DNA of 46,786 nucleotides, taken from assembly GCA_020348445.1 (NCBI GenBank), contig CP070751.1, positions 2,963,334 through 3,010,119 on the forward strand. Reading direction: 5' to 3'. This document shows positions 40,692 to 41,304 of the stretch, piece after piece; the stretch's first letter is position 1, and every line of letters starts with the position of its first letter. The notes below the pieces were generated by a model. It made no database searches. It was not told where the DNA came from and saw nothing but the letters and a program-made list of their open reading frames with translations. Made by a program: the position numbers and the translations under genes. The stretch comes from Thermoplasmata archaeon (GTDB lineage Archaea; Thermoplasmatota; Thermoplasmata; GCA-020350865).

Positions 40692-40784
40692 AATTCCTTA
40701 CCCCAATATTTAATCTCGATTTATTCGGGAATACATTGATTTGAATATAAAGTTTGCCAAAAGCCGCATCTCGGTCTTAAGTAG

Positions 40785-40800
40785 CAAAAATGTTATTAAA
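40785..40800 (+). promoter_or_regulatory. BRE/TATA promoter for the hairpin-array/tRNA transcript
   Basis: CAAAAATG-TTATTAAA ends 38 nt upstream of the first GCCGAGG unit. Confidence 0.55.
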
Positions 40801-40837
40801 AGCAAGGGCATTATGCCGTCAGGTTGGCTATCATAAA

Positions 40838-41055
40838 GCCGAGGTAGCCCAGCCAGGAACTCGTGGTGACCCTTTGGGCCCCCACTGTTTCTGTCTGGCC
40901 TTCTATAGTTAACGAGGTAGCCTAGCCAGGTAGTTCGTGGTCCTCCTTCGGAAGTCCACTATACCTGGTCTGGTCCGGCTATCACAGAGCCGAGGTGGCC
41001 CAGCCAGGTAATCCGTGGGGACCTTTCAGGCCCCCACTATACCTGGTCTGGGCTA
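40838..41055 (+). ncRNA. Array of three tRNA-Ser-derived hairpin units (starts 40838, 40911, 40989)
   Basis: Each unit begins with the tRNA 5' sequence GCCGAGGTAGCCCAGCCAGG (or a variant), has a GTGG..CCAC inner stem and ends with the antisense of the D-arm; compensatory changes between units. Transcription is inferred. Confidence 0.7.
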
Positions 41056-41066
41056 GCTTTCATATT

Positions 41067-41166
41067 GCCGAGGTAGCCCAGCCAGGTAAGGCGCGAGCCT
41101 GGAGTTGTTCAAACCGGCAAGCTCGTGGTGCTTTGCACCTCGGGAGTTCAAATCTCCCCCTCGGCG
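41067..41166 (+). tRNA. tRNA-Ser(GGA) with 15-nt intron (41105-41119)
   Basis: Acceptor GCCGAGG/CCTCGGC, discriminator G, anticodon stem CGAGC/GCTCG, long variable arm GGTGC-TTT-GCACC, T arm GGGAG-TTCAAAT-CTCCC; BHB helix CTGG/CCGG. Confidence 0.93.
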
Positions 41167-41189: not shown

Positions 41190-41304
41190 GCCGAGGGCAT
41201 AAATTAAGATTAATTTGTTGGAGATTTGAACCAGTAGGAGGCCGAATACAAGTCTTAACAAGCTTAGGCCACCTACGACGGTTCAAATCTCCCCCTCGGT
41301 TTTT
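41190..41304 (+). ncRNA. Downstream hairpin containing a copy of the tRNA 3' end paired to its antisense, ending in poly-T
   Basis: 41281-41299 is identical to 41146-41164; GCCGAGGG/CCCTCGGT, GGAGATTTGAACC/GGTTCAAATCTCC, GTAGG/CCTAC and GGCC/GGCC stems. Confidence 0.65.

Follow-up and report, generated by a model that had tools for sequence, protein, structure and literature searches.

The window, i.e., the whole 46,786-nt stretch of DNA that was analyzed, comes from a Thermoplasmata archaeon whose genome (hereafter G000) is a single archaeal contig of 5.16 Mb with 41.5% G+C. It contains a tRNA-Ser(GGA) gene that is preceded by a tandem array of three short palindromic units and followed by a further structured element. 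The genes around the array are housekeeping genes, with no mobile-element genes among them, and a search for related loci by way of the downstream NosD-like protein found none. The features of the locus are as follows:

40783..40807, + strand: putative promoter block AGCAAAAATGTTATTAAAAGCAAGG, assigned by position and conservation
40793-40801, + strand: TATA-like TTATTAAAA, inside the promoter block
40820..40837, + strand: leader start CAGGTTGGCTATCATAAA, resembling the end of an inverted arm followed by a GGCTATCA-type spacer, as after unit 2
40838..40910, + strand: unit 1 (73 nt), with a direct copy of tRNA positions 1-21 (40838-40860), core hairpin (40861-40886), inverted arm (40887-40900), and spacer (40901-40910)
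40911..40988, + strand: unit 2 (78 nt), with direct copy (40911-40934; begins AAC, not GCC), core (40935-40960), inverted arm (40961-40976), and spacer (40977-40988)
40989..41066, + strand: unit 3 (78 nt), with direct copy (40989-41012), core (41013-41038), inverted arm (41039-41054), and spacer (41055-41066)
41067..41166, + strand: tRNA-Ser(GGA) gene (Rfam RF00005, 44.1 bits)
41105-41119, + strand: 15-nt intron of the tRNA-Ser(GGA) gene at the canonical 37/38 position (sequence reading and ARAGORN -i)
41190..41304, + strand: mirror element, in which a copied 5' acceptor strand and an AT-rich hairpin precede the T-arm strand in inverted copy, a tip, the last 19-21 nt of the tRNA in direct copy, and T5

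The three units and their flanks

The gene at 41067-41166 gave the sole tRNA match to Rfam in the window, and its anticodon (GGA) and long variable arm were read directly from the sequence. ARAGORN reported no tRNA in the window at default settings; with introns allowed it found the gene and misnamed it Ala, and the tRNA-Ser(GGA) call was settled by Rfam. Upstream, the promoter block (AGCAAAAATGTTAWTAAAAGCAAGG) is kept, together with the EMC3/TMCO1-like gene that precedes it, in four congeners, and an alignment of the four orthologous loci showed it to be near invariant, whether three, one, or no units follow. From its position and this conservation we infer a promoter role for the block. The CAGGTT of the leader start also occurs in the unit-free orthologous locus of a related genome (G002), and the sequence 3' of CAGGTT is of the type found in spacers within the array.

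A preliminary description of this DNA had reported three units with starts spaced 73, 78, and 78 nt apart, in register with the tRNA at 41067. Copy positions, shuffling, and Tandem Repeats Finder all bear this out. The first 20 nt of the tRNA recur at 40838 (0 mismatches), 40911 (three), and 40989 (one), where 100 shuffles gave an expectation of zero chance matches, and Tandem Repeats Finder returned a period of 78 nt with 3.4 copies over 40827-41089. The stems and tips that had been quoted, as well as a 9-nt match (CTCGTGGTG) between unit 1 and the entry to the variable arm of the tRNA, are all present in the sequence. Each unit combines, in this order, tRNA positions 1-21 in direct copy, a core of 26 nt with the form YCGTGG...CCACT, the D-arm side in inverted copy, and a spacer of 10-12 nt. 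An alternative parse, i.e., inverted arm-spacer-direct arm plus core, is favored by the ends of the arrays and by the tRNA-Phe locus (see below), and single units in relatives are compatible with either order.

The units fold as hairpins, as had been described, with energies of -26.6, -31.8, and -45.4 kcal/mol (z = -1.8, -3.4, and -6.3) for units 1, 2, and 3, and the interior loop of every unit measures 4 x 2 nt. The inverted arm of unit 3 is also able to pair with the D-arm side of the tRNA itself (inverted repeat pairs I6 and I9). A covariance model (R1) gave 73, 72.8, and 86.3 bits for units 1, 2, and 3, scores that are not independent since the model was built partly from these very units; members from tRNA-Lys, -Ala, and -Phe genes are independent and show the same build. 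RNAalifold, run on a MAFFT alignment of 20 units, returned no consensus because the arms of different tRNAs had been aligned by tRNA position, and the structure was then set by hand on 11 units. In this alignment, 80.5% of cells are paired and double-sided changes occur in 9 of 21 pairs, values that 0 of 500 shuffles reached, and slid controls had 24-49% of cells paired. The earlier observation that pairing is kept by compensatory changes is thus sound. By hand count, the cores of the three units are 69-81% identical to one another, and since the units have diverged in this way the array is no assembly artefact.

When searched against Rfam, the units matched no family (the best hit, mir-491, scored 24 bits against a cut-off of 62), and no unit matched tRNA (RF00005) or a tRNA pseudogene, even at E <= 10. 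A literature search found no published description of palindromic units on the 5' side of tRNA genes, in agreement with the earlier statement that no described family with this layout was recognized.

Downstream of the tRNA, the mirror element is Y-shaped (-52.8 kcal/mol, z = -8.1; inverted repeat pairs I2, I3, and I8), and its homologues lie behind tRNA-Ser genes throughout the genus, two of them in tandem in G001 (L035). Other small elements were seen on this side of tRNA genes. A twin-hairpin element, GCGCTGTTYYC...GRRAACAGCGC with a second hairpin around CGAAATA, abuts the 3' ends of tRNA-Ser genes or of mirror elements (L013 and L032 in G004, L030 in G002, and L060 in G001), and a further copy of the tRNA 3' end comes after it in L013 and L060. 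In G000 itself, two tandem units of ~95 nt (C1:5066922-5067115) lie behind the tRNA at 5066819, which ARAGORN calls Ser(GCU); each has a copy of the acceptor 5' strand, a hairpin, and a copy of the last 16 nt of the tRNA.

Distribution and turnover of the core

In G000, the YCGTGG...CCACT core is present in at least 19 units at nine tRNA genes of five identities (Ser, Lys, Thr, Ala, and Phe). Two further Ser loci have the same layout, with one unit at tRNA-Ser(UGA), three at tRNA-Ser(CGA), and a mirror element 3' of each, and the core is joined to arms that copy the gene's own 5' end at tRNA-Lys, Thr(CGU), Thr(UGU), Phe, Ala(UGC), and Ala(GGC). The direct copies span the first 13-22 bases of the respective tRNA. 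Comparison of Ser with Thr units showed the cores to be 88-92% identical and the arms 44-69% identical, the arms matching the local tRNA. When all predicted tRNA genes were scanned, ~25 genes of many identities were found to have their own first 18 nt copied upstream or their last 18 nt copied downstream, and about half of the native tRNA genes have no units. Genome-wide, 54 core-like hairpins were counted versus ~29 expected by chance; ~24 of the 54 lie at tRNA genes, some within 3'-side elements, and this number matches the excess. By sequence and layout, the three units of the window belong to a family of palindromic cassettes that occupy tRNA gene ends in this genus, and the GTGG...CCAC hairpin is to be read as the family's own core and not as a mimic of the variable arm. 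The family is fast-changing and apparently undescribed.

At tRNA-Leu and tRNA-Pro(UGG) genes of G000 (C1:3218908-3219260 and 4239590-4239856; tRNA-Leu at 1361223, 2560668, and 3315177), the 5' units share this design but have a far longer core, of ~120 nt (…GGGCCCATCTWWGCCCTCGGAAA…). Their spacers end in CGC(C)TTAAT, a motif common to the spacers of the Ser(UGA), Ser(CGA), and Phe loci. A separate cluster of ~25 tRNA genes within 3 kb (C1:4640570-4643566) is possibly a virus- or element-borne array, in which the leaders are not complementary to the 5' ends of their own tRNAs (mean score 4.9). With respect to the origin of the core, the tRNA-Ser(CGA) of many other Thermoplasmata, among the matches listed, has an anticodon stem of GTGGC/GCCAC followed by T, like the ends of the core. 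This likeness might hint at where the core came from; however, descent from that stem was not adopted, as the match extends over only 4-5 bp.

The number of units varies among relatives. At the orthologous tRNA-Ser(GGA) loci of four congeners, 3, 1, 0, and 0 units stand behind the one conserved promoter, which argues against a conserved function; since congeners have anywhere from none to three, tRNA-Ser(GGA) must mature without them. The tRNA-Lys gene has two units in G000 versus three in G002, and tRNA-Thr(UGU) has two in G000 and one each in G001 and G002. Of the four other genus genomes, three yielded members with the covariance model of the units. Among 151 sampled genomes of the class, the model gave only two weak matches outside the genus. 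The match in G031 (another family) is a true unit and lies at a tRNA-Lys-like gene. That in G088, a member of another family in the class, is an array of the same design with another core and a familiar spacer motif: three or more tandem units of ~102 nt at C55:10171-10469 carry tRNA-Ser-like direct and inverted arms around a core of GGTCTAATTGG...CAATTAGGCC, their spacer AATTGAATACAATCGCAA resembles that of tRNA-Ala(GGC) in G000, and the contig ends inside the array.

In a pattern scan, among the matches listed for genome contigs, true units were those of G002, G003, and one variant (L102); most matches were genuine tRNA-Ser genes, whose anticodon stem fits GTGG...CCAC. A first search pattern had no matches in metagenomes, and a later one gave 23, among which four contigs carry true units. 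In relatives, units therefore occur in three of four congeners, in G031, and in four metagenome contigs.

The units are mosaics. In the single unit of G003, the core is like that of unit 3 or 1, and the inverted arm and spacer resemble those of unit 2. The tRNA-Ser(CGA) and tRNA-Thr(UGU) arrays hold nested foreign modules; in these arrays, an inverted arm pairs with the direct arm of the next unit (score 9) over that of its own (score 5), and we read the nested segments as foreign "inverted arm-spacer-direct arm" modules lying between two cores. At the tRNA-Phe locus, a perfect 63-nt direct repeat (inverted arm, spacer, and direct arm) brackets a 49-nt core insert.

Transcription and folding of the array

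Since the array lies between the only recognizable promoter and the tRNA, it is presumably transcribed if the tRNA is. Given that the units stand downstream of the conserved promoter block and contain no T run of length five or more, it is natural to suppose that they are transcribed together with the tRNA. The absence of T5 (0 in 2434 nt of units) is a weak sign of selection for read-through, because A5 runs are absent too and the G+C content of the units exceeds that of the genome. On the tRNA-sense strand, the spacers are poor in G (42 G vs. 98 C) and the hairpin loops are mostly T-rich. This asymmetry could reflect a constraint on RNA or mere shared descent, and such strand-specific signs are weakened by that descent and by the higher G+C of the units.

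The preliminary description had regarded the units as a selected, structured RNA family. That they are a real family of hairpin repeats has held up; selection on RNA gains no support from G.U counts or strand folding. G.U pairs make up 32 of 485 on the tRNA-sense strand versus 37 of 489 on the other, i.e., there is no sense excess, and the antisense strand of the units folds better by 2.2 kcal/mol. Considering the balance in G.U pairs and the antisense folding, a palindrome maintained at the level of DNA explains the "compensatory" changes as well as a selected RNA does.

When the whole precursor was folded, the optimum had an energy of -160.6 kcal/mol versus -157.7 kcal/mol for the modular fold of three hairpins and a cloverleaf. 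In the optimum, the inverted arm of unit 3 lies on the D-arm side of the tRNA and the acceptor copy of unit 3 on the tRNA 3' end. Since unit 3 invades the tRNA in this predicted fold, the units could interfere with the tRNA, and a role for them in its maturation is thermodynamically possible.

Origin of the cassettes and comparison with known systems

Our preferred reading, to which we assign a probability of about one in two, is that the units are a gene-less DNA repeat cassette that is reshuffled and spread by recombination or template switching, is carried passively in the pre-tRNA leader, and is removed with it. Within this group of Thermoplasmata, cassettes would accumulate at tRNA gene 5' ends, and arrays would grow, shrink, and swap parts via recombination or template switching during replication, the shared cores and the arms identical to the tRNA serving as sites of exchange. 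Gene conversion from the adjacent tRNA would hold the direct arm near identical to the gene, while intrastrand correction of the near-palindrome, or selection, would hold the inverted arm complementary. The array would be transcribed as a leader of ~245 nt, which RNase P would discard by cutting at 41067. An inverted arm that is paired inside its own unit would leave the real 5' side of the tRNA free, and pairing may be preserved because an unpaired inverted arm would trap that side; self-pairing within the unit, favored during transcription, would thus neutralize interference with the tRNA. Several points weigh against this reading. It would require some mechanism that makes an inverted copy of a new target, and plain homologous recombination fails to explain how the core first reaches a tRNA of new identity with both arms local. 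The G-poor sense spacers and T-rich loops could be an RNA constraint or simply shared descent, and the non-modular optimum of the precursor means that the units may affect maturation.

A possible, if doubtful, alternative is that the units are a gene-less mobile element on whose folded core a recombinase or transposase encoded elsewhere acts as on a recombination site, with the D-loop region of tRNA genes and cores already in place as the targets of insertion. It would thereby resemble integron attC sites, or REP elements moved by their transposase. Near-identical cores at unrelated tRNA genes, each with gene-specific arms, would be expected of such an element, as would foreign modules nested exactly between two cores, the excess of ~25 core-like hairpins accounted for by those at tRNA genes, and the perfect 63-nt repeat around the core insert at tRNA-Phe, which looks like a recent insertion. 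However, an inserted element would carry its own inverted arm, yet the arms are local, and no enzyme could be linked to the units among the Y1, Cas1, and tyrosine recombinase families. Y1 (HUH) transposases act on hairpins and are common in archaea. All five genomes of the genus encode them, so that their presence does not discriminate, and they adjoin no unit. Cas1 (PF01867) had no matches in the five genus genomes, although control genomes were positive, and tyrosine recombinase (PF00589) was represented in G000, which has more units than any other genome, by two fragments and no intact gene, in a search limited by masked stretches. The two fragments (C1:1864225-1864380 and 2412539-2412649) adjoin tRNA-Leu(UAA) and tRNA-Met, the second beside a masked (N) stretch, and may be remnants of integrated elements.

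It is unlikely that the array is a functional pre-tRNA leader, whether as a chaperone-like pro-sequence, a switch that gates RNase P, or the precursor of small RNAs antisense to the 5' part of the tRNA. The constant position of units between promoter and tRNA, the lack of T5 terminator runs, the G-poor linkers of the sense strand, an alternative precursor fold within 3 kcal/mol that places unit 3 on the tRNA, and pairing kept through double changes would all suit such a role. It is difficult to reconcile with the 0-3 units at the same locus among congeners, the absence of a sense-strand G.U signature, mosaic units of which some are built with the arms of another tRNA, the unit-free state of about half of the native tRNA genes, and the lack of a match to any known Rfam family. 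A bolder proposal, which we likewise hold to be improbable, joins both ideas: the cassettes would be a new self-addressed element, in which an enzyme acting on hairpins or single strands places the core and copies the target in direct and inverted orientation, and the resulting leader hairpins would modulate tRNA maturation.

More improbable is an origin as att-site scars, left by repeated integration and excision or decay of tyrosine-recombinase elements that target the 5' half of tRNAs, in a process akin to the accretion of att-flanked elements that lack an integrase. Archaeal integrating elements characteristically leave partial tRNA copies next to intact genes (PMC9897764), a unit-bearing tRNA-Ser(GCU) of G001 has an integrase gene ~0.2-1.4 kb away, and other small elements abut tRNA 3' ends in relatives. 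However, published fragments flank 9-23 kb of foreign DNA (PMC9897764), whereas the repeat here is 73-78 nt long, carries no payload, and forms a regular tandem array with a 78-nt period. A conserved core, spacer motifs, and an inverted copy of the target are also unlike att scars, and an intact PF00589 gene was not seen in G000, masked stretches aside. Finally, the suggestion that the units are SerRS decoys or mimics of the tRNA-Ser variable arm, which had drawn on the CTCGTGGTG match and the T-rich tip loops, can be virtually dismissed, since units with this core also precede Lys, Thr, Ala, and Phe genes, which lack a long variable arm (so that the match is no evidence for a decoy), the units lack acceptor stem, T arm, and anticodon arm, and there are congeners whose tRNA-Ser(GGA) loci have no units. 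A derivation of the tip from the variable arm was ruled out likewise by the presence of the core at class I tRNAs, and nothing in these sequences links the units specifically to serine or SerRS.

The closest published relatives of the units are the tRNA-linked repeats (TLRs) of E. coli (Egan and Landy, 1978; Stenum et al., 2021), followed by the partial tRNA genes left by integrating elements. TLRs are small non-coding repeats in runs of one to five in tRNA and rRNA operons; each repeats 18-19 bp from the end of the neighboring stable-RNA gene, is co-transcribed with that gene, and has a largely unknown function (PMC8144298). Similarity in sequence to the archaeal units would not be expected. 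TLRs lie downstream and copy the 3' end, whereas the archaeal units lie upstream, begin with a 20-22-nt copy of the 5' end, and alone add an inverted copy and a core hairpin shared across tRNA identities. The mirror element at 41190-41304 is more like TLRs in that it lies downstream and ends in a 19-nt copy of the tRNA 3' end. Partial tRNA genes (attL/attR) are also treated by Williams (2002), listed in the references of PMC9897764; the published archaeal cases flank 9-23 kb of foreign, integrase-carrying DNA (PMC9897764). Like the units, they are truncated direct copies of a tRNA end beside an intact gene; here, however, only 50-57 nt lie between the direct repeats, with no ORF and with housekeeping neighbors.

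Imperfect palindromes that are conserved in structure rather than sequence, that form arrays and evolve as mosaics, and whose active form is believed to be a folded single strand, are also known from integron attC sites and from REP/BIME elements, the latter moved by Y1 transposases. The hallmarks of attC are R''/R' boxes (RYYYAAC ... GTTRRRY), cassette ORFs, the IntI integrase, and attI. The units differ in that their core ends are YCGTGG/CCACT, with no R'/R'' boxes, no ORFs between units, and no integrase nearby. REP, BIME, and REPIN elements are scattered in many copies over intergenic regions and flank a cognate Y1 transposase gene; the units differ from them in that the cores (~25 above chance) are confined to tRNA gene ends and the arms copy the neighboring gene. 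Casposons depend on Cas1, are kilobases long, and have fixed terminal inverted repeats. In Aciduliprofundum, a Thermoplasmata-related archaeon, a casposon is reported to have inserted at the tRNA-Pro 3' end with duplication of the target site (PMC5137440), so that there too a short stretch of a tRNA gene end is duplicated. The differences are that casposons target the 3' end and that Cas1 was found in none of the five genus genomes. Nor do the units resemble pieces of split or permuted tRNAs, since the tRNA gene at 41067-41166 lacks no part and has a single, canonical intron, and the loops are 4 x 2, not the 3-4-3 of a bulge-helix-bulge.

The main outcome is thus corrective, in that the array is real and is no serine-specific RNA device. 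For annotation, it carries the warning that tRNA finders miss or misname these genes and that partial copies could be called pseudo-tRNAs. If the reading of the units as passive DNA cassettes holds, a whole sediment lineage of Thermoplasmata puts up with leaders as long as ~245 nt in which the 5' end of each tRNA is repeated in palindromic form, an arrangement for which no published parallel was found among archaeal or bacterial tRNA genes. Such leaders would provide a natural test of how pre-tRNAs fold and are processed beside decoy 5' strands and antisense arms, and the cassettes would be a tractable case for the origin and upkeep of gene-matching palindromes, for which gene conversion, the correction of quasi-palindromes, or some enzyme may be responsible.
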